Source: Candidatus Omnitrophota bacterium
Lineage (GTDB): Bacteria > Omnitrophota > JACPQZ01
DNA length: 64,000 nt
Assembly (NCBI GenBank): GCA_016190205.1
Contig: JACPQZ010000038.1
Location: 4,005 to 68,004, forward strand
Direction of reading: 5' to 3'
The notes under the pieces were generated by a model. The model saw only the letters and a program-made list of their open reading frames with translations, made no database searches and had not been told where the DNA came from. Below, piece by piece: positions 148 to 21,521 of the stretch. Made by a program: the position numbers and the translations under genes. Each line of letters starts with the position of its first letter. Positions within the stretch are counted from its first letter, which is position 1.

Positions 148-161
148 CGAAGGAGGACCTT

Positions 162-3416: not shown

Positions 3417-3492
3417 GTCGCACCTCCGAACCTTCAGTATAGCGCCCCGCGTCCTGTTCTTACCATGATGTAGATCATGCGTTAAGTCCGAT

Positions 3493-5136: not shown

Positions 5137-5246
5137 TGCGAGCCCCGCATAGCGGGGCGAAGCAATCTCATGAGATCGCCACGGCCGCCTTGGGCGGCCT
5201 CGCGACGCTTCGCGGATTGCTTCGTCGCTCCGCTCCTCGCAATGAC
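5096..5246. repeat. Palindromic MITE/REP-like element (about 150 bp) in the ccsB-ccsA spacer
   Basis: GTCATTGCGAG occurs at 5096 and 5132 and inverted as CTCGCAATGAC at 5236-5246. Nested hairpins CCCCGC-ata-GCGGGG, GCGAAGCAATC/GATTGCTTCG and GGCCGCC-ttg-GGCGGCC are present. Confidence 0.5.
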
Positions 5247-5260
5247 AGGCAGAACGTTTG

Positions 5261-7003: not shown

Positions 7004-7051
7004 GAAGGGATTCTCGGAAGGTTACCTTATATTATAACTCTTTAGATTCTT

Positions 7052-7246
7052 TTAATCAGCACTTTTCTTAGGTCCCAGCGCGGCCAAGATTTCCCGGCGC
7101 TCCGAATAGCGGTGATTAAGATAGAACGCGGATAGCGCCGTTCCCCCCGTCAGGTAAAATGAGCGCGCAAACGCCTCCTCCTTGAAACACGCGTCCAACA
7201 CCGTGCGATGGAGCGGGGTTAAGACTTCCGGCTTTTCGCTGTCCAA
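7052..7246 (-). pseudogene. Truncated N-terminal fragment resembling an AbiEii/DUF1814 nucleotidyltransferase toxin
   Basis: 64 aa with FYLTGGTALSAFYLNHRYSE (compare GGTAL...R.SEDIDF of AbiEii). It stops where the DxD motif would be. It overlaps the upstream 145-aa ORF in another frame. Confidence 0.3.
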
Positions 7247-7656
7247 AGGTCCACCGCCTCCTGCCAGTGACGTTTGACCTTGGGGTCCATCCTAAGTTCA
7301 GGAAGCGCCCTTTTAATTTCGCTTACGCTCAGATAGCTGAAAATCTCTGGCGGCCCAAGCCGGTCCAGGATACGGGCAATCAGCCACTTGCGCTCCTCAA
7401 AGGGAGAGTGCCGAAGGATCTCACGCACCTGGGCCTCGGTAAGATCGTAATCCCAAAGGAAAGAAGGCCTTTCTTTTTCCTTAAACCCGCCCTGGGGAAA
7501 AAGCGCCACCTCCCTCCTCGTGTGAATAAATTCCATAGTCGCCGCGCGCCCCAGGCTGGAGATGGACGTAAAAAGGGGGTTCTTTCGCAAGTAAGATTGA
7601 ATCTCCTTGAGCTCTTGCGGCAAAAACCGCATGGTTACGAGCTTGTTCTTAGTCAC
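7219..7656 (-). CDS. Hypothetical protein (possible partner or remnant of the adjacent truncated toxin-like gene)
   Basis: 145-aa ORF with no recognisable motifs. Confidence 0.25.
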   Translation of the reverse strand: MTKNKLVTMRFLPQELKEIQSYLRKNPLFTSISSLGRAATMEFIHTRREVALFPQGGFKEKERPSFLWDYDLTEAQVREILRHSPFEERKWLIARILDRLGPPEIFSYLSVSEIKRALPELRMDPKVKRHWQEAVDLWTAKSRKS

Positions 7657-7687
7657 ATATATATTGTATTCGATTCGAATACAAAAG

Positions 7688-9553
7688 TCAACCCTTTCCT
7701 CGGCCCGTAATCCATGACCACTTCATGGGATATTCGTCGGGGTCGAACATGACGAAATACAAATGCCATACGAGGATGGCAAGACAAGCCAGGATGGCCT
7801 CGTAGTAATGGACCGCCGTCACGGCGTCAAAGAACCACTTGGGAAAGACGTTTAAGGTCCAGCTTTCACGAAGCATAAGGGCCCCGGTAGCGGTCATGAT
7901 GACGGAACCCCACACGAGGGCCCAATACTCAAGTTTCTCAATGTAGCTGTACTTTGCAAAGACAGGCTTTTGCCGGCGAAATCCCAAGTTAAAGGCAAGC
8001 AGCTGAAAAGGCTGTATCCAATCCACTCGCCGCGGCCAAAGTTCATTAAGCTCACGCCGGCCGCGCCGCGTCAAGAGCATAAAGATGAGATGATAAGCCG
8101 CAAGTGCCGTGAATAGAACGGCAGCCCAGCGGTGACCCCCGCTGCGCCAATCCACCCTCCCCATGAAGGGACTCGCCCACCAGGCCTGTGGAACCTTAAG
8201 CGCGAAACCGGTATATGCGAGCACCGTAAACGATAGGATTAAGAAGAGGTGCTGTACCCTCTCATTGACCCCCATGCGCTCGGCCGCACCGGCGGCCGCA
8301 GCCGAGCGGCGGTAATGCTCGGCAAGCTTTTTCCTGTAATCCAGCACATTGTGCAAGAGCATGCCTCCAATCACAGAAAAGATGAGCGCGAGATAAAACG
8401 TCCGCACCCAGGACACCGCGCGGTGCTCAAGACCCGGCTGTGTCCCGGAGTGAATAGCGCCACGGGCCACCTGGCTGCTCACGCCCGGGTGGCAGGCGCC
8501 GCAGGTCTGAGCCAGATTCTCGGGGTGTACGGACGAACGCGGGTCGCCCGAAGAGAGGATGTCGTGCGCCCCGTGACAGGAGGCGCAGTGCGCGGCAGTG
8601 ACAGACCCTAGCTGTACCGCCAGCCCGTGAAAACTCTCCATGTAGGTCTTAACCACGTGCGATGGCATCCGGAACTTCGTCACAATGCGCTCCGCTCCGT
8701 GGCACTGGCCGCAGGTCTCCGGAATGTGCGACGGAAAAACCTTGGAGGTGGCGAGCCGCACGGCCTCGATCGTGTGCTCCCCGTGGCAATCCGTGCACAC
8801 CGGGGCTTCACGCTTTCCGGCCGCGGCCGCCCGGCCGTGCACACTGCGGGAAAAGACGCTGCGAATATTTTCGTGGCAGCGCCCGCAGGTCGAAGGGATG
8901 TTCCGCCAGTTGAGCTTCGATTCGGGGTGGGTCGCCCGGTGAAGGTCGTGCGAGCCGTGGCAATCGGTGCAAACGGCGGAAGCCGCTAGCCCCTTCTTAA
9001 GAAGCGCCAACCCGTGCACGCTTTCCGCGTAACTTGCCACAGGCGTCTCCTCGGAGAGATGAAACTTCTTCATCTCATCCACCTGCTCGTGGCACTGGGC
9101 GCAGGTCGACGGGATATTCAGCCTGTAGACTGGCGAGTCGGGATGCCGCGAGGGAACCAGGACATGGGGATCCCCGTGGCAGTCCCGGCAGGAGGCCGCC
9201 TCCGCAATGCCGGCCTTAAGCGCCCGGCCATGGTCGCTTTTCAGATACACTTCACTTTCGATCATATGGCATGTGGAACAGCTTACCGCTGGGAGGGGAA
9301 CTGCGTGCGGTACAGCCTGAATTCCGCTGTGGCAGCTCGTGCACAAGTGTCCGCCATGAACAGAACTCTGGAATTTTTCCTGCTCCACGCGGGCGGGGCC
9401 GTCCGGGACGCCGTGGCAGGCAAAACAGGTTTCGTTATCTATGCCTTCCGCCCGGGCGGACGCCCCGGGCACAGCAATGCACATGACTCCGGCCGCAAGA
9501 AAACCAAGGCGCCACGCTACAAACCGCTTGTTCCTTGATGACACTGGCTGCAC
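7688..9553 (-). CDS. Multiheme cytochrome c (11 CxxCH) fused to a C-terminal dihaem b-type cytochrome membrane domain (CbcL-like)
   Basis: Signal peptide. 11 CxxCH motifs (CFACH, CTSCH, CSTCH, CRDCH, CAQCH, CTDCH, CGRCH, CTDCH, CGQCH, CASCH, CGACH). C-terminal approximately 230 aa contain four or more TM helices with conserved His, resembling a FdnI/HydC-type cytochrome b. Confidence 0.75.
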   Translation of the reverse strand: MQPVSSRNKRFVAWRLGFLAAGVMCIAVPGASARAEGIDNETCFACHGVPDGPARVEQEKFQSSVHGGHLCTSCHSGIQAVPHAVPLPAVSCSTCHMIESEVYLKSDHGRALKAGIAEAASCRDCHGDPHVLVPSRHPDSPVYRLNIPSTCAQCHEQVDEMKKFHLSEETPVASYAESVHGLALLKKGLAASAVCTDCHGSHDLHRATHPESKLNWRNIPSTCGRCHENIRSVFSRSVHGRAAAAGKREAPVCTDCHGEHTIEAVRLATSKVFPSHIPETCGQCHGAERIVTKFRMPSHVVKTYMESFHGLAVQLGSVTAAHCASCHGAHDILSSGDPRSSVHPENLAQTCGACHPGVSSQVARGAIHSGTQPGLEHRAVSWVRTFYLALIFSVIGGMLLHNVLDYRKKLAEHYRRSAAAAGAAERMGVNERVQHLFLILSFTVLAYTGFALKVPQAWWASPFMGRVDWRSGGHRWAAVLFTALAAYHLIFMLLTRRGRRELNELWPRRVDWIQPFQLLAFNLGFRRQKPVFAKYSYIEKLEYWALVWGSVIMTATGALMLRESWTLNVFPKWFFDAVTAVHYYEAILACLAILVWHLYFVMFDPDEYPMKWSWITGRGKG

Positions 9554-11088
9554 TTAAACTCCGTGACGTCCATCCCCAAATCGACCGGGTGTCTAAAGGG
9601 CTGGGACACGAGGCTGGCCGCCGCAACTTCCTGCGGGGGCCCCTGGGCCAAAATGGTGTGGCAGGCATTGCAGTCTTTGGTAATGGTATGGCCCTCGCCT
9701 GAGCGGTGCAGGCCGTCGTGACAGCGGAAACAGCCCTCGGAATTCAAGTGCCCGATGTGATCGGGGTAGGCCCTCCAGTCGGCCTTCATCTCGGGAAAGA
9801 AATTGCGCGCGTAAATCTTCCCAAGCTCCTCGGCGGACCGGCGGATTTCCAGGGCTTTTTCGCGTGCCAGATCAGGGAAACTCCTCTCGTAATACGCGGC
9901 AAGACCCTTTTGGATTTTGCTCACAGCCTCATCCTCCGAGAGGTACGGCTCTGCTAAAATTCTAATCGCCTCGCGCTTTAAGTAGGGAAGGGTGGGGTCC
10001 AGCCGTTCTGTTTCAAAAGCCCGTTCCACGGCGCGGTCGGGGGGATGGAAATGATGGCTGGGCCTGTTGTGGCAGTCCATGCAGTCCATGCGGCGCACTT
10101 CACGGGACGCGAGCTCCCCGGCCGTCAGGGGGTTTTCCGTCGAGACGTATTCCGTGGCGTGCCCCCCGCGGTCCACGACCTTGATCCAGGGAATCTCCTC
10201 CCGGCCTTCGTCACGGGCCGCATAGTAGATTTCCTTATTGATATTCATATGCCAGTGGATGCCGGCCGGGGTTCCGCGCTCCGGATCACCGCCTCCCACC
10301 TTAATCAGCATCTGGATCTGCCAGGGAGAGTTTGTCTCATCGGCCAGGTAGTGCTGAAAAACTTTTTGTTTCGCCCCGAAAAACTTCTCCGGCCAATGGC
10401 ACTGTTCGCACGTCTCCTGGGCGGGTCTTAAGTCCTCGATGGGAGTGGGAATTGGGCGGGGGTACTTTTTGAGCGACACGGCATAGACCTGATAGGCCCC
10501 CGTGATTTTGGAGCGCACAAACCAGCTTGCGCCGGGCCCCACGTGGCACGACGCACAGGCCACGCGCGCGTGGGGGGAGTGCTGATACGCCGTAAACTCG
10601 GGCTTCATGACCTGGTGGCACACGAGCCCGCAGAATTCGACCGACTCCGTGAAGTGATACGCGCGGTAACCCGTAAGCGAGAGGAGCATCACCCCGGTCA
10701 TCGCGACGAGAAATGCGCCCAACAAAAAGGCCCTGTGAGAGGGCCGGTTGAGATCGAGGCTGGGGAGCCTCGTCTGCCCCAGCTCGGGCCTCCTCTTCCT
10801 GCGCCTGCGCTCCCAAAGGAGACCCAAGAGAATGAGGATTACCCCCGCGGTCGCCCCCATGGGGCATACGAGGTAAATGACGACGCCCAGGTAGGCGTTC
10901 GTGTGGCGGCTGAAAAAATCCGTCACCATGAGGGGAAGACCAACCGCGGTATTTAAGCAAGCGATACCTATCCCAAATAAACTTACCGGGTTACGTATGA
11001 GGCCTACGGGTCTTAAAGGACGTTTATCCACTATGAGTGGGTCCCTTTTTGTCCATACTGCGGATCTTCGCAATGAGGGCAAGGACAA
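9517..11088 (-). CDS. NapC/NirT/NrfH-family membrane-anchored multiheme cytochrome c (7 CxxCH)
   Basis: Three N-terminal TM helices followed by ESVEFCGLVCHQVMKPEF...SPHARVACASCHV, the hallmark first-heme region of NapC/CymA. Seven CxxCH motifs in total. Confidence 0.7.
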   Translation of the reverse strand: MSLPSLRRSAVWTKRDPLIVDKRPLRPVGLIRNPVSLFGIGIACLNTAVGLPLMVTDFFSRHTNAYLGVVIYLVCPMGATAGVILILLGLLWERRRRKRRPELGQTRLPSLDLNRPSHRAFLLGAFLVAMTGVMLLSLTGYRAYHFTESVEFCGLVCHQVMKPEFTAYQHSPHARVACASCHVGPGASWFVRSKITGAYQVYAVSLKKYPRPIPTPIEDLRPAQETCEQCHWPEKFFGAKQKVFQHYLADETNSPWQIQMLIKVGGGDPERGTPAGIHWHMNINKEIYYAARDEGREEIPWIKVVDRGGHATEYVSTENPLTAGELASREVRRMDCMDCHNRPSHHFHPPDRAVERAFETERLDPTLPYLKREAIRILAEPYLSEDEAVSKIQKGLAAYYERSFPDLAREKALEIRRSAEELGKIYARNFFPEMKADWRAYPDHIGHLNSEGCFRCHDGLHRSGEGHTITKDCNACHTILAQGPPQEVAAASLVSQPFRHPVDLGMDVTEFKCSQCHQGTSGL

Positions 11089-12373
11089 AGATTCCCAGGA
11101 GGGCCACGGTAACCCAGAGACCCTTGCGGCGGAAGTAGACCTCTTCGACCGCCTTTTCTCCCGCCTTCCGGGCCTCGTCTGCGTGGGCCAGGCCCTCGCC
11201 GGCCACCGATTTCACTTTCTCGATCGAAAAGGAATGCACATAGGCCCGGGTCTGCGTGAGCCGTGAAGAAGCCTCATGGAGCGTATACTCGGCGTCCTCC
11301 ATGTCCATGCCAAAATGATGGGCGCGCTGGATACTTTCCTCGGCCCCCTGGATGCGGGCCTTCAAATCCTCAACTGCCGCGCGCATCGCCTGCGCCGTTT
11401 CAAATCCTTTTGAGCCCGGCTCATGACAGCGCGCGCAGAAAGACTCCGGCCCCGTGCCCAGCATCTCATCGGAGGTCTTTTGAATGGCGTGGTTTCCGTG
11501 GCACACCTCGCATTCCGGAAGCCCCAGGGCCTCGTGGACCATCTTGTGCGGGCTGGCCGCGAAAAGGTCGCGCGAGAGGCTGTGGCACTGGGCGCAGACA
11601 TTCCCTACCGCAATCGCCCCTGGCTTGGAGGCCTCGTGAGAACCGTGGCAGCTCGCGCAATGCGGCGCCCCCCGGTCACCGGCCACAAGAAGAGCCTGTC
11701 CATGCACGCTGTGGGCGTAGTCCCAGTGCTGGTTCACGGGCAGCCCGTGACGCTTCATGAGATCCGCATCCGTGTGGCAGACGGCGCAGGTCCCGGGGAT
11801 ATTCGTGGCGTAAACGGGAGAGAGCGGGTCCTTGGCTGAACGGATGCCGTGCACTCCATGACAGCTCGTGCAGACCGCTACATCTTCATCCCCGGCGGCG
11901 TTTGCCTTGCCGTGCTGGCTCGTCAGATACTTCGCATACTGATCGGTGGGAAGATTAGGATTAAAGCGCCGCATAAAGGCGGGATCCGCGTGACAGCGCG
12001 CGCAGAAGCCGGGGATATCCTGGCGGGCGGGACGGCCCACGAATCCCTTTTCAAGGGCCATAGAAAGAGTCGGATCCTGTGCAGCAGGGTCACCCCCATG
12101 GCAGTCGGCGCAGGTTAAGCCCCGCTTAGAATGCACATCAACTTGAAAAAGAGCGGCGGGGCCGCGGGTTTGGCCCTCCAGCATCTCGTGGCATTCGGCG
12201 CACGTGTTTAAAGGCGCGGCCCAGGCTGACACCGCCGGCCACATGGCGAGGCTTAAGCCTGCAAGAGAAAAAATAAGACGCCGTATCAATGCCGAGCTAT
12301 GAACCATTTGGCGTATACCGTCATCCCTATCATGTAGAAAACTGTCAGAAACCCCGCGAGCCAGGCGAGCCAA
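11024..12373 (-). CDS. Nonaheme cytochrome c with a C-terminal TM anchor
   Basis: Signal peptide. Nine CxxCH motifs (CAECH, CADCH, CARCH, CTSCH, CAVCH, CASCH, CAQCH, CEVCH, CARCH). C-terminal hydrophobic helix GLWVTVALLGIFVLALIA. Confidence 0.75.
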   Translation of the reverse strand: MARLARGVSDSFLHDRDDGIRQMVHSSALIRRLIFSLAGLSLAMWPAVSAWAAPLNTCAECHEMLEGQTRGPAALFQVDVHSKRGLTCADCHGGDPAAQDPTLSMALEKGFVGRPARQDIPGFCARCHADPAFMRRFNPNLPTDQYAKYLTSQHGKANAAGDEDVAVCTSCHGVHGIRSAKDPLSPVYATNIPGTCAVCHTDADLMKRHGLPVNQHWDYAHSVHGQALLVAGDRGAPHCASCHGSHEASKPGAIAVGNVCAQCHSLSRDLFAASPHKMVHEALGLPECEVCHGNHAIQKTSDEMLGTGPESFCARCHEPGSKGFETAQAMRAAVEDLKARIQGAEESIQRAHHFGMDMEDAEYTLHEASSRLTQTRAYVHSFSIEKVKSVAGEGLAHADEARKAGEKAVEEVYFRRKGLWVTVALLGIFVLALIAKIRSMDKKGPTHSG

Positions 12374-13416
12374 TGCGCTTGGCCCCGGGCCGCCGGCCGG
12401 TCGAGCCAGGGGACTAAGATCAAGACCAGCCCCGCAAGACCCATGGCGACAATCGCCACAAGCTCCCCCTCAAGCCCCAGGATGTGCCCCGGGAAAAACT
12501 TGAGCGTCTGAAACATCCACAAAAAGTACCACTCCGGCTCGATTCCGGCCGGTGTCGGGGCAAAGGGATCCGCCTTCTCGCCCACCGTGGCCGGATAATA
12601 GGCGCTCAAGGCAAGCACTATCCCGAGCATGACCGACCAGGCGGCCAGATCCCGCAGGAGAAAATTTGGGATAAAGGGCATGGCGCGCTCCGACCGCACG
12701 GATAAAGGCCGGCTCATCCCCTGAAGCTGAACCATCATAAGATGCGCGCCCAATAGGAAGAAAAGGCAGACGGGGAGCGCCGCGATATGGAACCAAAAGA
12801 AGCGGGAAAGTGTCGCGTCCCCCACATCCGCCCCGCCGCGCAGGAAAGTGCTCAACACCTTTCCGATCACAGGGACGCTTGAGGCGATCTCCGTCCCCAC
12901 TTTTGTGGCGAAAAAGGAGAGCGTGTTCCAGGGAAGGAGGTACCCGGTGAAACCAAAGCCCATAAGGAGAAAAAAAAGGAGACAGCCCGTGACCCAGGTG
13001 AGCTCCCGGGGCGGCCGGTAGGCCTTCAGGAAAAACGCGCTCGCCATGTGGATGAAGGCCGAGAGGATAGCCATGTTCGCCGCCCAGGCGTGCACCGAAC
13101 GCACGAGCCACCCAAACTCGACCTTCGTCATGATAAGGCGCACCGACTCGTGCGCCTCGCCCACAGAGGGCCTGTAGTACAAAAGGAGGAGGAGCCCGCT
13201 CAAGATCTGCACCGCGACCAAGACAAGCGTCGTTCCGCCCAGATAGTACCAAAGAGAGTGGCCGTGGACCGGCACAGTCTTGTGCGTGACAAGCTCGCCC
13301 AAGCCCCCCAAGTTGTAGCGGGCTTGAAAAAAAGACTTGAGCCTCTCGCGGGCGCCCATGGGTGAACCCATCGCGTTATCCGGTCTTGGTGACCACGACG
13401 TCTTCCCCGCGCACAT
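12286..13416 (-). CDS. Cytochrome b of a bc1/b6f-type complex (cyt b fused to a subunit-IV-like region)
   Basis: 376 aa. HSLWYYLGG...QILSGLLLLLYY...VRSVHAWAANM...HMASAFFLKAYRPP are conserved cyt b/b6 haem-ligand helices. Confidence 0.85.
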   Translation of the reverse strand: MCAGKTSWSPRPDNAMGSPMGARERLKSFFQARYNLGGLGELVTHKTVPVHGHSLWYYLGGTTLVLVAVQILSGLLLLLYYRPSVGEAHESVRLIMTKVEFGWLVRSVHAWAANMAILSAFIHMASAFFLKAYRPPRELTWVTGCLLFFLLMGFGFTGYLLPWNTLSFFATKVGTEIASSVPVIGKVLSTFLRGGADVGDATLSRFFWFHIAALPVCLFFLLGAHLMMVQLQGMSRPLSVRSERAMPFIPNFLLRDLAAWSVMLGIVLALSAYYPATVGEKADPFAPTPAGIEPEWYFLWMFQTLKFFPGHILGLEGELVAIVAMGLAGLVLILVPWLDRPAARGQAHWLAWLAGFLTVFYMIGMTVYAKWFIARH

Positions 13417-13837
13417 TCACCTCGTAGTTTTCCAGGGGACGCGGGGGCGGGCCGGAAATGACTTGTCCTTTGAGATCGAATCTCCCGTTGTGGCAGGCGC
13501 ACCAGATGGAGCGGGAGGCATCGTCGTACTGAACCGTGCAGTTTAAGTGGGTACAGACGGCGGAGTAAGCTTTGAGTTCCCCCTCAAGGGTGTGCACCAA
13601 AAGCCCCGGCCGGTTCCCGAAGCGGAAGATCTTGGCCGAATTGGGTTTTAAGTCGCCTATCTTGGCCGCGACGACGCTGGATTGTGCGGCCTCAACGCCT
13701 GGAGGGGGCTTGAGATAACGCAGGATGGGATAGAAGGCGGCGGCCAGAATGGCAAGGAGCGAGCCGTTTAAGGCGGATTGACAGAAAGACCTTCGTGTGA
13801 TGAAAAACCCGCGTGCTCCCGGGCGATCTGCCCTCAT
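13376..13837 (-). CDS. Rieske [2Fe-2S] iron-sulfur protein, TAT-exported
   Basis: RRSFCQSAL twin-arginine signal. Rieske boxes CTHLNC and CACHNGRF. Confidence 0.85.
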   Translation of the reverse strand: MRADRPGARGFFITRRSFCQSALNGSLLAILAAAFYPILRYLKPPPGVEAAQSSVVAAKIGDLKPNSAKIFRFGNRPGLLVHTLEGELKAYSAVCTHLNCTVQYDDASRSIWCACHNGRFDLKGQVISGPPPRPLENYEVNVRGEDVVVTKTG

Positions 13838-13865
13838 GTGACTTTACCCCCACCCAGAGATCGTA

Positions 13866-15923
13866 TCAGAAGGTCTTGGAGACCGCAAGTGAGACGAGAT
13901 GCGCCTTGTACTTTCCTATTTCAGCCTGCGAGCCGGGCTGGTAGTGGTAATACCCGTACTCGGCCCTGACCGAGGTGTCTTGAGCAAGCTCACAGCGGAG
14001 GCCGCAGGTGAGATCAATTTGACCAAAGTCCGCACCCAGCGGAAGCCCGGTCGACGTAAAATCGTTGAAATTGTCGGCCTCGGAATACTGCGCAGAGGCG
14101 TCGAGCGTAAGATTGGGTCTCATCATATAATCGGCCCCGACAAGCCAGGTATTGACGTCCGCGTTAAACACCGGGACCTGCCCGCTTGCGGCAAGCCTCG
14201 CCGGGGTCACGGTGGCCGCCGTCTGATGCGAGAATGAGCCCATCAGCATGAGCTCCCTAAGCACGTGGATGGTCAGGTCATAAGTATAGGTGTGTGAGGT
14301 AAACTCGCTTTTCCTCCTGGGCTCGCTTTCCGCGCGTGTCAGGTAATCTTTGTCCTGAAGCTGATAACGAAATGAGGTGCGGACCTTGCGGACGGGACGA
14401 AGGCTCACGCGCGCCATGATCTCATCCGTATCGATACTCATCCCGTCCATAAAGGCTGAACGGGCCGCGGTCGAACCGGGATCGGTCTCAAAGAGATCGT
14501 CATAGTCCTGGTTGTCCCGGCGGTGCCGGTAGTGGGTGGTGAGATCGACATAATGCACCGGGGTCACCCTGCCTCCCACGGTCACAGTCCCCCGATCGGC
14601 ATCCGTAATCGTGTCGCGCTCGAAGCTGACAGCGCCGGTGGCGTAGCTCACAGACTGCTCTTCCAGCTTGATCCTGGACTGCTCAAGCTCTAGTTCCGAG
14701 TAGAGCGCCGTATAGGGGATCCCGGTGTAATGGATGTTGAGCCCCTCCCCCCACCTCACGGCTGTCGAGTCATTGGTGCTGATTTCGGCCTCTTCAACAA
14801 ATCCGTCAGGCGTGCTGCCGCCCGAACTATTGGGATTACTATCCTCCGGATACCTGGAATTGCTGTCCCGGCTCACCAGTTCTGACTTAAGTTTAAGTCC
14901 CACTGCCACGTCCTCCCACTCATAGAGCACGGCATTTCCCACCCACGTATGGGTAAAATAATCATTATCAGCGGTGGCATCCCGCTTTTGCTTGGGGTTA
15001 CTGAAATTGGTGATCACCCCGTTCTCATTCGTTTCAAAGATGTCTTCCAGTTCCGTAAAATTGAGATACGCGAACTGGTAACCCCCCGACGTAAAGAGTT
15101 TCCGGTCCCAAAACCACCTTTCTGCACCTAAGAAAGTTGTGTACAAATCGCTCTCCGGGCTTTGGAGTTGCCGCCGGATCTTTTTGTCGGAAGCTGTCGT
15201 GGTCGTGGAGAGGCTCTTTTCTACGCGGGTCGATTCGGTCCGGACGAATTCCACGTGCTGTTTCCCCGTGAGCCGCGCGCCGCGAAAGTCATCTGCGACT
15301 TCGAGCTCCAGCATATCCACCCGCTCATCAAAGTCCTGCCACGAGGGCCCGATAAAACGCGTGGTGCTCCCTTCCTTCACTCCCGCCCAGGTCAAACGGG
15401 ATTTCGCCCCATCCTTAAACTCACGCTCATACGTAAAGGTGATTTCCGGCACGTCTTCCTTGCGGAGCCCGGTCTTAAAACCGAAGTGGCCGATCTCAAG
15501 TTCAAGATCTTTATCCGCATCCTGGCCGGACAAGGTGCCGAAGCGGTAGTACACGCCTCCGGTATTGTCAAAGTACTTGCTGAACTCATTGTAGTCAAAC
15601 GTTAGAAAACCCAGACCTTCTTTTTTTAGCGTAATCTCCCCTCCCAGATCGTTCTGATCTATGAGGGCATGCGCCTCGGAGGAGAGCTGGGTGCCATCCG
15701 CGAGTCCATAATTAAACTCGAAGTCCTCCACGCCAAACACGTAACGATCGCGCATCCACTGGTGTTCCCGAAACTTAGGCCTGTCTCCATCCACAGAGAT
15801 ATATCGCAGCGGGAGAACAGAAATCCCAACCTCGGGATCCCCGGCCTGCGCCGGGCCGCCCCATGAGAGCAGAACCCACATCGCTCCGGCCGATAATAAC
15901 CCGATGATCTTGGCGCGCATCAT
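13866..15923 (-). CDS. Outer-membrane beta-barrel protein (685 aa); candidate porin of a porin-cytochrome conduit
   Basis: N-terminal signal peptide. C-terminal ...LAVSKTF with an aromatic last residue. Amphipathic alternating pattern throughout. Size is comparable to MtrB/PioB-class porins. It lies between two multiheme cytochrome genes. Confidence 0.5.
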   Translation of the reverse strand: MMRAKIIGLLSAGAMWVLLSWGGPAQAGDPEVGISVLPLRYISVDGDRPKFREHQWMRDRYVFGVEDFEFNYGLADGTQLSSEAHALIDQNDLGGEITLKKEGLGFLTFDYNEFSKYFDNTGGVYYRFGTLSGQDADKDLELEIGHFGFKTGLRKEDVPEITFTYEREFKDGAKSRLTWAGVKEGSTTRFIGPSWQDFDERVDMLELEVADDFRGARLTGKQHVEFVRTESTRVEKSLSTTTTASDKKIRRQLQSPESDLYTTFLGAERWFWDRKLFTSGGYQFAYLNFTELEDIFETNENGVITNFSNPKQKRDATADNDYFTHTWVGNAVLYEWEDVAVGLKLKSELVSRDSNSRYPEDSNPNSSGGSTPDGFVEEAEISTNDSTAVRWGEGLNIHYTGIPYTALYSELELEQSRIKLEEQSVSYATGAVSFERDTITDADRGTVTVGGRVTPVHYVDLTTHYRHRRDNQDYDDLFETDPGSTAARSAFMDGMSIDTDEIMARVSLRPVRKVRTSFRYQLQDKDYLTRAESEPRRKSEFTSHTYTYDLTIHVLRELMLMGSFSHQTAATVTPARLAASGQVPVFNADVNTWLVGADYMMRPNLTLDASAQYSEADNFNDFTSTGLPLGADFGQIDLTCGLRCELAQDTSVRAEYGYYHYQPGSQAEIGKYKAHLVSLAVSKTF

Positions 15924-15937
15924 GCCCCCCTTAGCTT

Positions 15938-16714
15938 TTAATAGCGCAAATGGTCATCAAAATTCGAGCCGTGCGGTGCCGTGTGGCACCCGGCGCTAAA
16001 ACATGTCCCTTGCGCAAGATTGGCCGTATGGCTTCTCTTGCCAATGGTCGGAAAATTAACCTGGGTATGGCACCGCAGACACAGGGTGCTGTCACGCGCG
16101 ATCAGCATCTTCGCATGCATGGAACCATGCACCTTGTGGCAGGTCGTGCAGCCCTCGCGCAGGGCCTCATGCTCCCACACGAAGGGCCCCCTCTGCTCCT
16201 TATGGCATTTGTAGCAGGCCTCGTTGATGTCCTGAAGGGTCGTGGCTGACCAGGGCCTGACCTCGGTCCCGTGGGGGCTGTGGCAGTCGGCACAGCTCAT
16301 CTTGCCCTCTAAGACAGGGTGATGAAAGGAAAGCTTAAATTCCATTTTCTTGTCCAGGTGACATTCAAAACAGGTGCTGGGGTCCTTCCGGGGATTTACA
16401 ATCCCTCCCACACCCTTCCCGCCCCCCGCCGCCACGTGGAGGCTCCCCGGGCCATGGCACATCTCGCAACCCTGCCGTTCAAGACCCTCTCCCTTCACAT
16501 TGATACGCGCATGGGTGGAAAGCTTAAATTCCTGGTGCTCCTTGTCGTGACACATGGCACACGTCTCGGTACCAACGAATGTCGCTTCTTCGGACTCCTC
16601 TCCTTGAGGCTCACCCTCATCGGCCCACACCGATGTGGCACCCAATAGACACACGGCAACGAAAGCAATCCCCCATCCCGCCTGTTTCATCAAACCTCTT
16701 CGTGAGCCGCGCAT
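15938..16714 (-). CDS. Periplasmic multiheme cytochrome c (7 canonical CxxCH plus one CX4CH)
   Basis: Signal peptide. CAMCH, CEMCH, CFECH, CADCH, CYKCH, CTTCH, CLRCH and a non-canonical CFSAGCH. Confidence 0.75.
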   Translation of the reverse strand: MRGSRRGLMKQAGWGIAFVAVCLLGATSVWADEGEPQGEESEEATFVGTETCAMCHDKEHQEFKLSTHARINVKGEGLERQGCEMCHGPGSLHVAAGGGKGVGGIVNPRKDPSTCFECHLDKKMEFKLSFHHPVLEGKMSCADCHSPHGTEVRPWSATTLQDINEACYKCHKEQRGPFVWEHEALREGCTTCHKVHGSMHAKMLIARDSTLCLRCHTQVNFPTIGKRSHTANLAQGTCFSAGCHTAPHGSNFDDHLRY

Positions 16715-16731
16715 ATTTGTGCCTCCTTGGG

Positions 16732-17151
16732 CTATTCAGATTGTGCGGGAGTGCCCGCCGTATCCGTGCCCGCCGCACCACCCGCAGCCGGAGGGGTCAC
16801 CCCCTCGGGATGCGACGCGGGATCCGCAAGATCGGTGCCCTGTTCCCATTCCATAAGATTGGCGGCTCCGTCCTGGTCGGCATCTTCCTGATCCAGGAGG
16901 TGGAAGTCCGCCTCCGCCAGGATCTTGGCCGCCCCTCCGGGCTTCGTGGCCTTGAGACTCAACCCATAGACATTGAGGTCATCCGCCTTTCCCATGGCCC
17001 CCTGGTGGCAGACCTTGCAGGAATAGGCCTTCGCGTCCTTCCCCGGATAGGCTTTTTTGAAGGTCATCAGGTTCTGAACCGTCGCCTCTGCGCCCGGGCA
17101 AACGGAAAAAAGAATAAAACTTGAGACGATTAAGAGACCTGCACGGGACAT
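16732..17151 (-). CDS. Monoheme cytochrome c with an acidic Pro/Ala/Gly-rich C-terminal tail
   Basis: Likely start is MSRAGLLIVSS (signal peptide). A single CKVCH motif. Low-complexity tail PAAGGAAGTDTAGTPAQSE. The start overlaps the end of hemA. Confidence 0.5.
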   Translation of the reverse strand: MSRAGLLIVSSFILFSVCPGAEATVQNLMTFKKAYPGKDAKAYSCKVCHQGAMGKADDLNVYGLSLKATKPGGAAKILAEADFHLLDQEDADQDGAANLMEWEQGTDLADPASHPEGVTPPAAGGAAGTDTAGTPAQSE

Positions 17152-18203
17152 GTGACTTCCTCCTTTAAAGGACCACGGTTTAACCATTCCATAAAATGCT
17201 CTACCTGATCATGCAAGATAAGTTCACACGCCGGGAGGTGCCTTCCCCGTTCCTTGAGCGCGGCTTGGGACGCGGCGGTAAGATCATCGATATTCTTAAG
17301 GTGCACGCCGCGCACCTCGCCCGCCGCGGGGTCCACGTTGCGGGGGACGGCGAGATCCAATAGATAAACGGGTCTCCCGCTGCGGCGGGTCATGACGGCG
17401 AGCATGTCCTCGCGGCTTAATACATAATGGGGTGCCTGGGTTGAGAGTACGGCGAGATCCACCTCTTCCAAATATCTCATCCCCTCTTCCCACGAAGCCC
17501 ATCCTGCCCGGCAAATCTCCGCCAGGTCCTGGGCCCTGGAGAGGGTGCGATTGACGACCCAGAGCCGGCCCAATCCAGCCTGGGTGAGATTCCGGGCCGT
17601 AGACTCCGAGGCCTTGCCCGCCCCCCAAACGAGCGCGCTTCTACATTCAAGATCCTGTCCCAAGGACTCGCGCGCCCAGCGCACGACCATGGATCCTATG
17701 GAGGTCTGCCCCTTTGCGATATCGGTTCGCGAACGCACGAGGTGCGCGCAGTGAAATGCCTTCTGAAAAAGCCGGTTTAAAATGGAATCCGCGGCCCCCG
17801 CGCTTACGGCCGCGCCATAGGCGTGCTTGACCTGGGCCGTGATCTCGGTTTCTCCCAAAATCATGGAATCCAGACCTGCCGTCACGCGAAAGAGGTGGTG
17901 CGCCGCCTCCCGCCTTTCCATCCAGTACAAGTGTGCCTCGAATTCGGAAGGCTCCAGATGACTTAAGCCCGCTAAAAGCTCCACTCCTTGAGCGCGCGCT
18001 TCGTGGAGATTACCACTTACCGCGTAAAGCTCCGTCCGGTTACAGGTAGACAAAATAACCGCTTCCTGAATGGAAGCGGTTAAGAGTCCTGGGAGGGCCT
18101 TTGGTAAATCCCGTGACGGGATGGAAAGCCGCTCGCGCAGATGGATGGGCGCGGTGCGGTGATTCATTCCTAAGACGGATAGGGACATGACCCTCCCAAA
18201 CAA
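17130..18203 (-). CDS. hemA: Glutamyl-tRNA reductase
   Basis: GMNHRTAPIHLRERLSI, VILSTCNRTELYAV and a Rossmann GAGK motif. It lies upstream of, and in the same orientation as, the cytochrome genes. Confidence 0.8.
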   Translation of the reverse strand: MFGRVMSLSVLGMNHRTAPIHLRERLSIPSRDLPKALPGLLTASIQEAVILSTCNRTELYAVSGNLHEARAQGVELLAGLSHLEPSEFEAHLYWMERREAAHHLFRVTAGLDSMILGETEITAQVKHAYGAAVSAGAADSILNRLFQKAFHCAHLVRSRTDIAKGQTSIGSMVVRWARESLGQDLECRSALVWGAGKASESTARNLTQAGLGRLWVVNRTLSRAQDLAEICRAGWASWEEGMRYLEEVDLAVLSTQAPHYVLSREDMLAVMTRRSGRPVYLLDLAVPRNVDPAAGEVRGVHLKNIDDLTAASQAALKERGRHLPACELILHDQVEHFMEWLNRGPLKEEVTCPVQVS

Positions 18204-18246
18204 ACGCTGTTTGAGCCCCCATGATAAGACAGGTCCGGGGAGACTA

Positions 18247-18264
18247 CTATGATACAGGTCATAG
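18247..18264. promoter_or_regulatory. Perfect inverted repeat CTATGA-N6-TCATAG (Crp/Fnr-type operator geometry) upstream of hemA
   Basis: Read directly from the sequence. The 5-6 bp half-sites with a 6-bp spacer resemble TGTGA-N6-TCACA. About 45-60 bp upstream of the hemA start, next to two Crp/Fnr regulator genes. Confidence 0.3.
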
Positions 18265-18349
18265 AGCCAACGATCATAAATTAACCCCTAGTATAAGTTA
18301 CAAGAAGGGGTCAGGTGAAGAACGAATATTAATACTATAGGCTGGGCGC

Positions 18350-19042
18350 TTAATTGCAGTTTCGCAGGATACCCTTAAGCTGCCGGGGGGCTAATATCGT
18401 AATCCAGCCCCTGCCGGACGAAACCCATCCCTTTTGCTTGAGGTGCGCCAGCGTGCGGATGGAGGTCTCCCAGCGCGTGCCCACCATACGCGCGAGCTCC
18501 TGGTGCGTAATGGGAACGGTCCGGCCGAAGGAATTTCGGAGTTTTAAGAGGACGTGCACGAGCCTCTGCTCCACGCTGGCCTGGGAGAGGCTGATCATCT
18601 CCGCCATGTGGCGCATGCGGTCGCAGCAGCTTAAGAGGACCCGGGATGCGAACTTGGGGTAGCGGCTTAACAGTTTAAGAAACGCGGCCCTCGGTATGCG
18701 GAGAAAGCTCGCATCCGTAGCCGCCACGGCGCGTGTGGAGTAGACGCCCCCCCCATCCAGGGCGGAGATCCCGCACAGGGCCTCGTCGGGCGTCAGGATA
18801 AAAATGGTGGCGTACCCCCCGTTTAAGGTGTGTTTAATAAGATACACCCAGCCGCTTTCGATGATCCAGACAAACTCGGCCGGGTCCCCTTCATCGAAGA
18901 TGACCTTGCCCTTCTTAAATTTAAGGAATTCCAGCTCCCGGGATAGGCCCCTCCGCGCCGAGCTCGGCATGGAGCAGAAATAGGAGATCCGGTCCAGGGA
19001 ATCGAGGGTAATCATGGCGGTACCAAGATACCCCCTCGGCAC
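18350..19042 (-). CDS. Crp/Fnr-family transcriptional regulator
   Basis: cNMP-binding domain plus C-terminal HTH (ELARMVGTRWETSIRTLAHLKQKGWV). Confidence 0.8.
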   Translation of the reverse strand: MPRGYLGTAMITLDSLDRISYFCSMPSSARRGLSRELEFLKFKKGKVIFDEGDPAEFVWIIESGWVYLIKHTLNGGYATIFILTPDEALCGISALDGGGVYSTRAVAATDASFLRIPRAAFLKLLSRYPKFASRVLLSCCDRMRHMAEMISLSQASVEQRLVHVLLKLRNSFGRTVPITHQELARMVGTRWETSIRTLAHLKQKGWVSSGRGWITILAPRQLKGILRNCN

Positions 19043-19062
19043 GAAGTCTTCTATGATTAAGA

Positions 19063-19743
19063 TCAGGGTTTGGGAGAGTGATTGAGGAAAGCCGCCAGGC
19101 CTTCGGAATTGGTGATCGTGGTCTTGCCGCGTGAAGATTGAATCAAGCCCTGCTGCTTGAAACGGCTCAAGATCCGGATGGCCGTCTCATGGGTGGTGCC
19201 GGCGATCTCGGCAAACTCCTGGCGGGTCAACGGGATGGTACCTGAAAATTTCTTGCCCAATACGAGCAGGGTATGGGCGAGCCTAAGTTCCGCCGGTTCG
19301 TACAGCCGGCAGCCGGCCCGTTCCACGATCCTCAAGCGCTCGCAGAAAAGGCACATGACGTCTTGCGTGAAATCAAAAGACCGCCTCATGATGCCGTGCA
19401 TGGCCTGAATGGGAATGCGCATGACGGTCGTGGGCTCCGCCGCCACGGCATCCGCAGGGTAGGGCTTGCGGTCTAAGGAAGGAAGACAGCAAAACACCTC
19501 GCCGCGGGTCATGACACAAGTCGTACTCACCTTGCCGTCGGCCAGGACTTTTAAAAGATGCACGCGCCCGCTCTTGACGAGCCAAACGGCATCGGAGGGC
19601 TGGCCCTCATAAAAGATGACCTCTCCTTTGGCAAAATGCTTTTCGGACGAGGCCTCCGCCAGACGGTGCTGGTCTTCCCGGCTTAAACGGCGGAAGGGAT
19701 CTGTCTTTTGAAGGAGCGCGCCATTTTCGGTCATACCGCGCAC
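19063..19743 (-). CDS. Crp/Fnr-family transcriptional regulator (paralogue of the adjacent gene)
   Basis: cNMP-binding domain plus HTH (EFAEIAGTTHETAIRILSRFKQQGLIQS). Confidence 0.8.
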   Translation of the reverse strand: MRGMTENGALLQKTDPFRRLSREDQHRLAEASSEKHFAKGEVIFYEGQPSDAVWLVKSGRVHLLKVLADGKVSTTCVMTRGEVFCCLPSLDRKPYPADAVAAEPTTVMRIPIQAMHGIMRRSFDFTQDVMCLFCERLRIVERAGCRLYEPAELRLAHTLLVLGKKFSGTIPLTRQEFAEIAGTTHETAIRILSRFKQQGLIQSSRGKTTITNSEGLAAFLNHSPKP

Positions 19744-21521
19744 TCTCCCTGACCCACGGTGAGCTTAAATTCCTCTTTTTGATCCCAGTCCACGTACACG
19801 CCGCGGTTCGTGTCGTACTCCTCAACTTGGGCGAGGTCCTTCAAGGCCTCACGCGCGGCCTCGCGGTCGAGGCGTCTTAAGTACGCTGCGATCGATTCAC
19901 CCGGGGCGCGTTCCTTGCGATAGAGCGCAATAATACGCTCAACCGCCTCGGGCACCTTTTTGGTAGGGAGCTTCATGATGGCGCGTCCTATCTGGCAGAC
20001 TTCCTGGTCCATGCCGCCCCCGAAGAACATCTGCACATGGGGAACCTCACGGCCGTTACGAGTTCCCACCGCCCCGTGAAAGCCTAAGGCCGCGACGTGG
20101 TGCTGGCCGCAGGAATTGGGGCAGCCGCTGATTTTGATGGTCAAGTCCTTGACGTCCTCGTACTTCCCATTGCCCTGGGCAAACATCTCGTTCAAGGCCC
20201 GCGCAAGTCCTTTCGAGGACGTGATCCCGAGATTACAGGTATCCGCCCCGGGGCAGGCCAGGACATCGTAGACCTGTCCTGCCCCCGCCTTGGGAAAACC
20301 CAATTTTTGAAGCTCCACATAAAGAGCCAGGACATGTTCGTCACGGACCCAGCGGATGAGCACGTTCTGGGTAATGGAAAGCCGCACCTTGCCGTCGGCA
20401 AAACGGGTTGATAGTTCAGCCATGCCCCTCATCTGGGCGGGGGTCATATCCCCAATAGGAATGAGGACCTCGACCGTGGAGTAACCCTTGTGCTTCTGGG
20501 GGAAGACGTTGGCCGCCTTCCAATGATTGAACTCGGGGCTCGTGAGCATCACCTTTGGCGGCGGGTTTTTAGGAGAGGGGGGAGGGGCCTCCTCCCACTT
20601 GGCTTTATATTCCTCGATATCCGGGTACCTGACGCCCTGGGCCTTCAAGGCTTCGGCCTCTTGCAAAACGCGCTTTTTAAATTCTTCAAAACCAATTTTT
20701 CTTACCAGAAACTTCATACGGGCTTGGTTTTTGTTGACGCGGTCTCCGCATCGGTCTTGAATCCTGACGATCGCGTGCATGAGCCGGAGAAAATCCTTTT
20801 CCTGGACAAAGTCGGACAGGAGCTGGCCCACCATCGGGGCTGCCCCCAAGCCCCCGCCCGCATACATCTTAAATCCGCACACGGGTTTTCCGTTTACAGC
20901 CTTTATCTTGGGGACCAGGCCAATTTCGTTAAACGTCACCTGCCCCTCATTCTTATGCGAGGAGGCGAAATTGATCTTAAACTTGCGCGGGAGCTTCTGG
21001 CTGTCGGGGTGCCTTAAGAAATACGCGGAGGTCATGCGCGCATAGGGGGTGACGTCAAAAGGCTCTTCTGAACTCACCCCCGCCATGGGATCGGCCACCA
21101 CGTTTCGGATGGAGTTGCCGCAGGCCTCCCGCGTTGTCAGGCCCGCCTCGTACAGAAGGCGCAATACGGTGGGCGTATCCGGGGTCTGGACGAAGTGTAT
21201 CTGGATGTCCTGCCGGGTCGTGATGTGGCCCAGTTTGTGCGCGGTGTAGTTATCGATAATATCGGCGATACGCACGAGCTGATCGCGGGTTAAGATCCCC
21301 GAGGGGATCTTGATCCGGATCATGTGGTTCGTGCCGCCCTGCCTCTGGCCGTAGACCCCCCTCATCAGGCGAAAGGGCCTGAACGTATCGTCAAAAATCT
21401 CCCGCCTCAAGTAGCGGCTGACCATCTCGCTAAAATCAGAAAGATCCTTCTCAACTTCCACTGGAAGGGGTATCCCGGAAGGTTTGAGGGCCCGCGAGGT
21501 TAGTGCGCTGTTCGTTTCCAT
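19731..21521 (-). CDS. Siroheme/[4Fe-4S] ferredoxin-dependent nitrite/sulfite reductase (NirA/Sir family)
   Basis: 596 aa. Cys cluster CPGADTCNLG...CPNSCGQHH is characteristic of siroheme-FeS reductases. Duplicated NIR_SIR ferredoxin-like halves. Confidence 0.75.
   Translation of the reverse strand: METNSALTSRALKPSGIPLPVEVEKDLSDFSEMVSRYLRREIFDDTFRPFRLMRGVYGQRQGGTNHMIRIKIPSGILTRDQLVRIADIIDNYTAHKLGHITTRQDIQIHFVQTPDTPTVLRLLYEAGLTTREACGNSIRNVVADPMAGVSSEEPFDVTPYARMTSAYFLRHPDSQKLPRKFKINFASSHKNEGQVTFNEIGLVPKIKAVNGKPVCGFKMYAGGGLGAAPMVGQLLSDFVQEKDFLRLMHAIVRIQDRCGDRVNKNQARMKFLVRKIGFEEFKKRVLQEAEALKAQGVRYPDIEEYKAKWEEAPPPSPKNPPPKVMLTSPEFNHWKAANVFPQKHKGYSTVEVLIPIGDMTPAQMRGMAELSTRFADGKVRLSITQNVLIRWVRDEHVLALYVELQKLGFPKAGAGQVYDVLACPGADTCNLGITSSKGLARALNEMFAQGNGKYEDVKDLTIKISGCPNSCGQHHVAALGFHGAVGTRNGREVPHVQMFFGGGMDQEVCQIGRAIMKLPTKKVPEAVERIIALYRKERAPGESIAAYLRRLDREAAREALKDLAQVEEYDTNRGVYVDWDQKEEFKLTVGQGECAV

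Follow-up and report, generated by a model that had tools for sequence, protein, structure and literature searches.

Porin–cytochrome conduits are the only well-understood route by which Gram-negative bacteria exchange electrons with minerals, electrodes and partner cells, and surveys find them mostly through MtrA/MtrB-type profiles. Here, we analysed a stretch of 64,000 nucleotides of contig JACPQZ010000038.1 (hereafter, the window) from the metagenome-assembled genome (MAG) of an uncultured groundwater bacterium, a Candidatus Omnitrophica, in which the gene for an octahaem c-type cytochrome lies directly upstream of a gene for a large outer-membrane β-barrel and follows the gene for a monohaem cytochrome. 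Based on homology, fold, motif conservation, synteny and gene fusions, the octahaem cytochrome and the barrel very probably constitute a trans-outer-membrane electron conduit of the MtrAB/MtoAB/PioAB type. From the same lines of evidence we infer the physical complex, the haem occupancy, the localisation, the coupling to haem synthesis and the direction of electron flow.

In the MtrCAB complex of Shewanella (PDB entry 6R2Q), MtrB has 26 strands, and MtrA is oriented with its N-terminus towards the periplasm and its C-terminal haem, A10, towards MtrC at the cell surface (PMC12076491). The window module is similar to MtrCAB in its MtrA homology, its predicted 26-strand plug-free barrel with MtrB as the best structural match, and the cytochrome-then-barrel gene order. 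However, its cytochrome has eight haems instead of ten, equivalents of MtrA haems 3 and 4 being missing, and the last haem motif is CX4CH rather than the CXXCH of MtrA. The barrel differs in the absence of an N-terminal CXXC and of detectable sequence similarity to MtrB, and the quinol dehydrogenase partner is CymA for MtrCAB, whereas ImcH-like and CbcL-like proteins are encoded in the window. No surface decahaem lipoprotein of the MtrC/OmcA type was found among the operon products, which gave only matches below the cut-offs: an MtrC/MtrF domain in the octahaem cytochrome (29 bits, cut-off 30) and the OmcA/MtrC family in the 523-amino-acid ImcH-like protein (16 bits, cut-off 209).

The MtoD-MtoA-MtoB-MtoC/ImoA system of Sideroxydans and Gallionella and the PioAB system of Rhodopseudomonas share with the window a two-component outer-membrane module that has no surface cytochrome, a monohaem gene directly upstream, and an inner-membrane cytochrome of the CbcL/MtoC or NapC type in the cluster. 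MtoA and PioA are DmsE-family decahaem proteins, and MtoB and PioB are members of the MtrB_PioB family, whereas the window proteins reach neither curated threshold. In addition, no relation of the window monohaem protein to any solved cytochrome could be detected, relatives often have it fused to the multihaem protein, and a Rieske/cytochrome b complex, hemA and CcsBA are encoded in the same gene string. The Pcc system of Geobacter (OmaB/OmbB/OmcB), whose OmaB and OmbB were compared by description only, is similar in combining an eight-haem periplasmic cytochrome with a porin-like barrel, and in the ImcH signature and CbcL architecture of the inner-membrane partners. However, it needs a 12-haem outer lipoprotein cytochrome, for which the window operon has no gene. 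OmbB is predicted to have approximately 20 strands.

Searches of the published literature for Omnitrophota or Omnitrophica together with multihaem, porin, MtrA, MtoA or extracellular electron transfer found no description of the module. The only link found was a survey in which three ImcH and three CbcL homologues were counted in Ca. Omnitrophica (PMC6295460). By function, the genes look like an MtrAB/MtoAB/PioAB-type module, the sheathed wire by which metal-respiring bacteria pass electrons through the outer membrane, in a lineage-specific version not previously described in the literature searched. Its distinctive set of features is eight haems, a CX4CH terminal haem, a barrel unrecognisable by sequence, an often-fused monohaem protein, adjacency of an ImcH-like gene, linkage to hemA and to system II cytochrome c maturation, and occurrence almost only in MAGs labelled as Omnitrophota or as members of the Planctomycetes–Verrucomicrobia–Chlamydiae (PVC) group.

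An MtrA-like octahaem cytochrome and an MtrB-like barrel

The core genes and their motifs, all on the minus strand, are as follows.

13866-15923, minus: outer-membrane β-barrel, 685 amino acids (AlphaFold2 model, Foldseek)
15938-16714, minus: octahaem c-type cytochrome, 258 amino acids, MtrA homologue (haem motifs, phmmer)
15983-16003, minus: CFSAGCH (CX4CH), predicted eighth and outermost haem-binding site, residues 238-244 of the octahaem cytochrome (translation, alignment)
16732-17151, minus (longest open reading frame starting at 17187): monohaem cytochrome c, 139 amino acids, with a TSP3-like acidic loop and an Ala/Pro/Gly/Thr tail
17005-17019, minus: CKVCH haem motif of the monohaem protein (translation)
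16834-16884, minus: DADQDGAANLMEWEQGT, putative degenerate TSP3/EF-hand-like calcium-binding-type loop of the monohaem protein (translation, conservation)

The barrel, octahaem and monohaem proteins are identical to the NCBI entries HYY14_02945, HYY14_02950 and HYY14_02955, respectively. The octahaem gene has its own Shine-Dalgarno sequence, AAGGAGG, and its product has a signal peptide. The protein contains exactly seven CXXCH motifs (at residues 52, 83, 115, 141, 167, 189 and 212) and a single CX4CH, CFSAGCH, giving eight haem sites. A preliminary description of the locus had reported these motifs in a 258-residue cytochrome encoded directly before a 685-residue barrel, and the coordinates and translation bear this out. 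In an alignment of 120 homologues, all sixteen haem cysteines and seven of the proximal histidines were invariant, and the eighth proximal histidine was conserved in at least 90%. Eight haem motifs in 258 residues, conserved to this extent, are far beyond chance. A further eight histidines were invariant across the 120 homologues; these candidate distal ligands are the number needed for eight bis-His haems.

The closest solved relative of the octahaem cytochrome was chain A of the Mtr complex (6r2q_A; phmmer E 2.1e-31), which aligned in two stretches over query residues 46-251. Length and position identify this chain as MtrA, although it is recorded under a wrong molecule name. Haems 1-2 correspond to the first two haems of MtrA and haems 3-8 to its haems 5-10, so that the octahaem cytochrome corresponds to MtrA minus one dihaem unit. 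CFSAGCH...HGSN aligned with the last MtrA motif (haem 10), CLNCH...HGSN, with the second cysteine and the histidine in register and the first cysteine two residues further upstream. CX4CH was kept at this terminal position in 117 of the 120 homologues. In the distant locus L033, it was kept as CWSAGCH, and the partner barrel was only 25% identical to that of the window. CX4CH is a recognised minor haem-binding motif (PMC11492766), and a claim of novelty for the motif itself was dropped for that reason; it is noteworthy for its conserved position, not for existing. The orientation of MtrA and the homology together predict that, of the eight haems, the CX4CH haem lies furthest out, at the cell surface.

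The barrel protein has a signal peptide and a C-terminal phenylalanine. Its only cysteines are C640 and C644, in agreement with the earlier remark that an N-terminal CXXC is absent. The AlphaFold2 model (predicted local distance difference test score [pLDDT] 91, predicted template modelling score [pTM] 0.82, from a 59-sequence alignment) has 26 long strands in a parity-consistent topology, the count (approximately 26) having been read from the DSSP string and not from coordinates. The C-terminal strand (residues 671-683) ends in phenylalanine, and the connections backward from there alternate between turns of 2-6 residues and longer loops. This pattern in the model would fit 13 loops on the extracellular side, 12 turns on the periplasmic side and a periplasmic position of both termini. 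The first strand begins at residue 30, three residues past the point where the signal peptide is predicted to be cleaved, and all connections have 23 residues or fewer, which leaves no room for a plug. The preliminary description had named fewer than 16 strands with a plug as the outcome that would speak against a porin–cytochrome barrel; about 26 strands and no plug were found.

Comparison of the model with the PDB by Foldseek gave MtrB (6r2q_B) as the top match (E 4e-13, template modelling [TM] scores 0.64/0.67), followed in the ranking by 22-strand TonB-dependent transporters with TM scores of about 0.4. Identity as a TonB-dependent transporter was rejected because there is no plug and the TM score is only about 0.4, and LptD and usher identities were rejected because there is no plug and neither appeared in the top 50 matches.

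A profile search of 1.84 billion representatives yielded 904 barrel-family representatives at E<=1e-3, each standing for a cluster at 50% identity. Approximately 96 full-length homologues were found, all unannotated, and among 59 homologues searched against Pfam only weak, generic OMP_b-brl and DUF2490 matches were obtained. One relative, P0252, has a low-complexity, Lys/Ser/Glu-rich N-terminal extension of 260 residues.

In a subfamily of about 800 residues (P0096, P0299, P0305 and P0312), a PSCyt1 monohaem domain is fused to the N-terminus of the barrel, in two copies in P0312. The one genomic context examined for this subfamily, that of P0096 (locus L033), has an octahaem gene directly upstream of the fused barrel. 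Cyc2 functions on its own and has a small barrel, of about 16 strands. The fused subfamily resembles Cyc2 in having an N-terminal monohaem domain joined to the barrel, but its barrel is MtrB-sized and, in P0096, adjoined by an octahaem gene; the window barrel itself is unfused.

Conservation of the octahaem–barrel pair

A scan of one genome per GTDB species detected 27 barrel loci, nearly all labelled as Omnitrophota or as generic uncultured Planctomycetales/Planctomycetia, and many from groundwater. Synteny was counted by tblastn of the window proteins against 32 related loci. The octahaem gene was directly upstream of the barrel gene in 30 of the 32; it was downstream in one, and the remaining locus had no upstream sequence. 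The adjacency also held in the distant locus L033. With the synteny kept in about 30 of 32 loci, chance is ruled out as the source of the adjacency.

The other genes of the window were shared less regularly: the 523-amino-acid ImcH-like protein was found in 15 loci (directly after the barrel in seven), hemA upstream in 13, the Rieske protein with cytochrome b in 12, the nonahaem cytochrome in nine and ResB/CcsA nearby in eight. The octahaem–barrel pair is the invariant core, and the inner-membrane partners vary. Together with the MtrA homology and the MtrB-like fold, this conserved synteny upholds the porin–cytochrome reading of the preliminary description.

Some loci had other neighbours. A second type of context comprised, directly one after the other, a PF27139 (Aq_1264_TM) membrane protein, the octahaem cytochrome, the barrel and an unknown protein of about 112-126 residues (L001, 6945-9210; L004, 8727-9242); in L001, a multicopper-oxidase-like gene and a P-type ATPase gene were also near the pair. 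In L011 (7920-12858), the barrel gene overlaps at its 3' end with a napA gene, which scored 994 bits and so passed the NapA cut-off; the next gene encodes a small, weakly NapB-like cytochrome. This arrangement may represent a direct link of the conduit to periplasmic nitrate reduction. In L008 (2939-9650), genes for a Band-7 protein, a c3/c7-type cytochrome, a QrcB-like molybdopterin-like subunit, a 4Fe-4S protein and NrfD (Qrc/ACIII-like) lie between the barrel and Rieske genes. A similar layout of open reading frames, with a homologue of the molybdopterin protein in the same place, was seen in L026 (10289-16761), which from its layout apparently also has a Qrc-like cassette.

The monohaem cytochrome, its acidic loop and its fusions

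The longest open reading frame of the monohaem gene (16732-17187) contains a single CKVCH and ends in PAAGGAAGTDTAGTPAQSE. An ATG at 17151, preceded by AAAGGAGGAAG and located seven bases past AAAGGAGG, gives the 139-residue product annotated at NCBI and is a likelier start than 17187. The preliminary description had noted an acidic low-complexity tail in this protein. A tail is present, but conservation among homologues argues that its acidic motif, DADQDGAANLMEWEQGT, is a degenerate calcium-binding-type loop and not mere low complexity: D90, D92, D94, G95, E101, G105 and T106 (DxDxDG...E...GT) were conserved in at least 90%. At the homologous position, P0101 and P0130 matched Pfam TSP3_bac (PF18884) with 26.8 and 26.1 bits, respectively (cut-off, 25). 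The window protein itself had no Pfam match, TSP3_bac included, at E<=10. The acidic stretch would thus be a TSP3-type loop, followed by what appears to be the remnant of a linker, as described next.

Of the 120 octahaem homologues, 59 carry at their N-terminus a fused domain that is homologous to the window monohaem protein, which brings them to nine haems in 313-425 residues; the other 61 are unfused, as in the window. The fusion linkers, measured from the loop to the first octahaem motif, are 34-111 residues long (median, 73) and rich in Ala, Pro, Glu and Ser, and the PAAGG... tail of the window protein appears from its sequence to be the stump of such a linker. A frameshift artefact of assembly was rejected as the source of the split genes: the split is genuine because the octahaem gene has its own Shine-Dalgarno sequence, ATG and signal peptide and 61 of the 120 relatives are likewise split. 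Fusions such as P0100 have, at residues ~130-150, a conserved amphipathic segment (AYLxxxxxPxAWA) just before the octahaem domain. This segment occupies the place of the signal peptide in the split versions, and could be a relic or a functional docking helix.

The monohaem domain gave only chance-level matches to PDB sequences, its AlphaFold2 model (pLDDT 82) had no Foldseek match in the PDB, and no conserved methionine or histidine distal ligand was evident in the family. The monohaem domain fused to the barrel in the distant subfamily (PSCyt1) is unrelated to the one fused to the octahaem cytochrome. Fusions of a monohaem domain to the octahaem cytochrome or to the barrel argue for a three-part complex, and its attachment at the periplasmic end of the wire or barrel argues that the mouth of the complex on the periplasmic side is where a monohaem cytochrome docks. 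As a functional analogy only, the membrane-tethered cytochrome c_y of Rhodobacter suggests how a small monohaem domain on a long Ala/Pro-rich tether could shuttle electrons. There is no homology between the two, the tether here is on the outer-membrane cytochrome rather than an inner-membrane anchor, and in the window it is severed, the parts being separate genes.

Two copies of the monohaem gene were present in L003 (6372-9191) and L026 (4334-7168). In L003, three unknown open reading frames (409, 213 and 158 amino acids) lie between the copies.

Overlap with hemA

The stop codon of hemA is at 17130, so that the monohaem gene overlaps its end, as had been noted before, by 22 nucleotides (nt) from the ATG at 17151 or by 58 nt for the longest open reading frame. 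In the five other genomes with the monohaem gene directly after hemA (L003, L005, L006, L018 and L026; six genomes counting the window), the overlaps were 22, 34, 34, 34 and 40 nt, with the ATG 6-8 nt past an internal GGAGG. The C-terminal sequences of hemA differ among the genomes sharing the overlap. The recurrence of the overlap and its internal Shine-Dalgarno sequence in five further genomes makes translational coupling between hemA and the monohaem gene plausible. In more distant loci, hemA is still upstream, without an overlap.

HemA contains only the Pfam domains GlutR_N and the NADPH-binding Shikimate_DH, aligned with TIGR01035 at model positions 2-335 of 416, and lacks the C-terminal dimerisation domain. 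Because the relatives in L003 (372 amino acids) and L005 (354 amino acids) are equally short, the short form is characteristic of the lineage and did not arise through truncation by the cytochrome gene that overlaps it.

Inner-membrane partners and gene context

From 3.5 to 19.7 kilobases (kb), the minus strand carries a gene string that is unbroken, with short gaps or overlaps, except for the region of a 145-amino-acid open reading frame at ~7.2-7.7 kb. The order from upstream is two Crp/Fnr regulators, hemA, monohaem cytochrome, octahaem cytochrome, barrel, Rieske protein, cytochrome b, nonahaem cytochrome, the 523-amino-acid protein, a 621-amino-acid protein, ResB and CcsA. The features outside the core are as follows.

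18350-19743, minus: two Crp/Fnr-type regulators upstream of hemA (Pfam cNMP_binding and HTH_Crp_2)
17130-18203, minus: hemA, glutamyl-tRNA reductase, 357 amino acids (Pfam, TIGR01035)
13376-13837, minus: Rieske iron-sulphur protein (Pfam Rieske, E 2.8e-14)
12286-13416, minus: cytochrome b, fused b6 and subunit-IV type, about 7 transmembrane segments (Pfam Cytochrome_B and Cytochrom_B_C; transmembrane scan)
11024-12373, minus: nonahaem cytochrome, 449 amino acids, with a C-terminal membrane anchor (nine CXXCH; transmembrane segment 419-437)
9517-11088, minus: ImcH-like inner-membrane quinol dehydrogenase, 523 amino acids (transmembrane segments and haem motifs)
7688-9553, minus: CbcL/MtoC-like protein, 621 amino acids, with 11 c-type haems and a b-type cytochrome membrane domain
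5261-7003 and 3493-5334, minus: ResB and CcsA, respectively, of system II cytochrome c maturation (Pfam ResB, Cytochrom_C_asm)

The cytochrome b matched the NCBIfam cytochrome b6 and ExtP-like models, both under the cut-offs, and the 449-residue nonahaem cytochrome is probably the c subunit of the Rieske/cytochrome b complex. In the 12 related loci with a Rieske gene, it is downstream of the barrel gene. The 523-residue protein has transmembrane segments at residues 37-55, 69-87 and 120-138, a CX3CH motif (CGLVCH) at residue 153 and then six CXXCH motifs. This corresponds to the published ImcH signature of three N-terminal transmembrane segments, a CX3CH near the transmembrane region and about six CXXCH (PMC6295460), a likeness at the level of the signature. 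The same survey reported ImcH homologues from Fe(III) reducers alone and never saw imcH next to mtrAB/mtoAB genes (PMC6295460), whereas here the ImcH-like gene directly follows the barrel gene in seven loci. The 621-residue protein has 11 CXXCH motifs, a Pfam Ni_hydr_CYTB domain at residues 430-603 and at least four C-terminal transmembrane segments by a simple hydropathy scan; its match to the NCBIfam formate dehydrogenase gamma model (44.9 bits) was under the cut-off of 115.85. It has the CbcL/MtoC/MtrH architecture, that is, a multihaem c domain followed by a HydC/FdnI-like dihaem b membrane domain (for CbcL, PMC6295460). Among the related loci, a CbcL/MtoC-like gene was found only in L010.

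The pair of Crp/Fnr regulators was likewise present in L003, L005 and L018. A scan of positions 3300-19900 found no intergenic terminator inside the cluster, and promoter and terminator counts were at the level of shuffled sequence; the scan is compatible with a single operon and uninformative beyond that. The 145-amino-acid open reading frame (7219-7656, minus), between the CbcL-like gene and resB, had no Pfam match and no tblastn match in the related loci.

On the plus strand, a molybdopterin oxidoreductase with a twin-arginine translocation (TAT) signal is encoded at 90-3223, accompanied by a TorD/DmsD-like chaperone; the nearest models were PhsA, PsrA and ArrA, all below cut-off. Homologues of this enzyme with 80-83% identity occur within a few kb of the octahaem–barrel pair in L011 and L014. 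At the other end of the window, gyrA (53017-57150, minus) encodes a 1377-residue product with an intein (Pfam Intein_splicing, residues 153-663). gyrB and dnaA lie together at 57173-62662, and near 62 kb the GC (guanine–cytosine) skew reverses its sign; the replication origin is probably adjacent to the window.

Proposed mechanism and direction of electron flow

In the proposed mechanism, the barrel would serve as a 26-strand plug-free sheath through which the elongated octahaem cytochrome is threaded with its N-terminus in the periplasm, so placing the C-terminal CX4CH haem, the equivalent of MtrA haem 10, at the cell surface. As no MtrC-like surface cytochrome was found in the operon, this haem would itself be in contact with the extracellular substrate. 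The monohaem cytochrome would be the third, periplasmic part, an electron carrier that connects haem 1 of the octahaem cytochrome with the inner-membrane modules, as a free protein in the window and tethered by a flexible linker of median 73 residues in half of the relatives. The candidate inner-membrane modules are the Rieske/cytochrome b complex with the anchored nonahaem cytochrome, the ImcH-like protein and the CbcL-like quinol dehydrogenase. HemA upstream would supply haem, ResB/CcsA downstream would attach it, and the overlap between hemA and the monohaem gene probably couples their translation.

We see roughly an even chance that the conduit runs mainly outward, taking electrons from the quinol pool to Fe(III), Mn(IV) or humic acceptors outside the cell. 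The ImcH-like protein was the most frequent inner-membrane partner (15 loci), and the presence of three quinol-interacting modules (Rieske/b-nonahaem, ImcH-like and CbcL-like) favours outward respiration. Geobacter has a potential-tuned quinol set of ImcH, CbcL and CbcBA, which the three side-by-side modules of the window recall.

Several results weigh against a conduit or against its outward direction. All of the relatives come from MAGs or other metagenomic sequence, and the strand count depends on the DSSP string. The octahaem cytochrome scored 164 bits against TIGR03508 (DmsE decahaem family), under the cut-off of 192.2, and has eight haem sites, not the ten of those proteins. Pfam MtrB_PioB (PF11854) matched neither the window barrel (E<=0.01) nor the 59 family members (E<=1), and the barrel family profile found nothing among PDB sequences at E<=10. 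Membership of the MtrB/PioB family at the sequence level was rejected because of these absent matches. The preliminary description had called the barrel MtrB/PioB-like in size; in fold, MtrB is the top structural match, but by sequence the module does not belong to the MtrB_PioB or DmsE-decahaem families. Judged from its model, the barrel is one that works like MtrB by fold, and it is not filed as a family member. The lack of sequence similarity to any characterised porin–cytochrome barrel would also fit a barrel that acts as a large solute channel of the ordinary kind or has a structural role in the outer membrane, with the octahaem cytochrome a soluble periplasmic carrier and the adjacency a matter of co-regulation. 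We consider this extremely improbable: the two genes stayed adjacent in four different genomic contexts and where the barrels share only 25-52% identity, it is MtrB in particular, rather than a porin or TonB-dependent transporter, that matches best in structure, one subfamily of these barrels carries a fused cytochrome domain, and the closest solved relative of the octahaem cytochrome is the barrel-inserted MtrA. Hardly more probable is a DmsEF-like conduit, in which the pair feeds a molybdoenzyme exported to the cell surface rather than minerals directly. Shewanella DmsEFAB offers a precedent (PMC9732548), the window encodes the TAT-signal PhsA/PsrA-like enzyme and its chaperone, and the close homologues of the enzyme lie near the pair in L011 and L014. 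However, the enzyme gene is on the opposite strand, beyond ResB/CcsA, a close homologue is near the pair only in the window and two of the 32 loci, surface export of the enzyme is without evidence, and most loci have the pair without any molybdoenzyme. Even taken together, these two readings are unlikely, with a small remainder for other readings.

For a trans-outer-membrane conduit, direction is only weakly constrained: two components, a CXXC-less barrel and a monohaem partner are features of the Fe(II)-oxidising Mto and Pio systems. The same conduit might run inward, taking up electrons from extracellular Fe(II), minerals or a partner cell and passing them through the monohaem cytochrome as an MtoD analogue to NapAB-type periplasmic reductases, or uphill via the Rieske/cytochrome b complex into the quinone pool; we hold this to be possible but somewhat doubtful. 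MtoB and PioB are likewise not known to have an N-terminal CXXC. Beyond the missing CXXC and the absence of an MtrC-like surface cytochrome from the operon, the order of a monohaem gene before the multihaem and barrel genes is that of mtoD-mtoA-mtoB-mtoC, and CbcL/MtoC-type proteins occur in Fe(II) oxidisers too (PMC6295460; PMC4412085). The napA and NapB-like genes at the end of the barrel gene in L011, the Qrc-like cassette (QrcB-like protein, FeS subunit, NrfD and c3-type cytochrome) beside the barrel in L008 and apparently in L026, and multicopper-oxidase-like, VIT1 and hemerythrin genes near the pair in L001 and L005 point the same way. Against uptake, the most conserved inner-membrane partner is ImcH-like, and ImcH homologues are reported only in Fe(III) reducers (PMC6295460); no terminal oxidase or carbon-fixation genes were seen in the 64-kb window, and the Nap/Qrc adjacency occurs in few loci and could reflect clustering of anaerobic respiratory genes.

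Going further than a conduit of either direction, we tentatively propose a third porin–cytochrome lineage, specific to PVC/Omnitrophota. This would be an obligate three-part machine of a 26-strand barrel, an MtrC-less octahaem cytochrome with a CX4CH surface haem, and a calcium-binding monohaem cytochrome on a tether of 34-111 residues that swings between the quinol complexes and the wire, the third part having been repeatedly fused or split, joined to the wire in one clade and to the barrel in another, and its synthesis being coupled, by way of the gene overlap, to that of HemA, the first enzyme of haem biosynthesis.

Significance

Because the module fails both curated profiles, surveys based on MtrA/MtrB profiles would miss it. 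It is nevertheless widespread, with 904 barrel cluster representatives and 27 GTDB species genomes, mostly groundwater Omnitrophota, and would mean that extracellular electron transfer extends to a candidate phylum about which little is understood. The octahaem cytochrome would be a natural minimal eight-haem wire with a distinctive terminal haem, useful for structure-function work. The natural fusions reveal cooperating proteins, which is evidence that normally needs biochemistry, and the conserved hemA overlap is an unusual indication of a direct link between the supply of haem and the making of a haem-rich machine. If the proposed three-part lineage is real, many Omnitrophota of groundwater would have an overlooked role in the extracellular redox cycling of iron, manganese or humic substances, or in direct electron exchange with partner cells.

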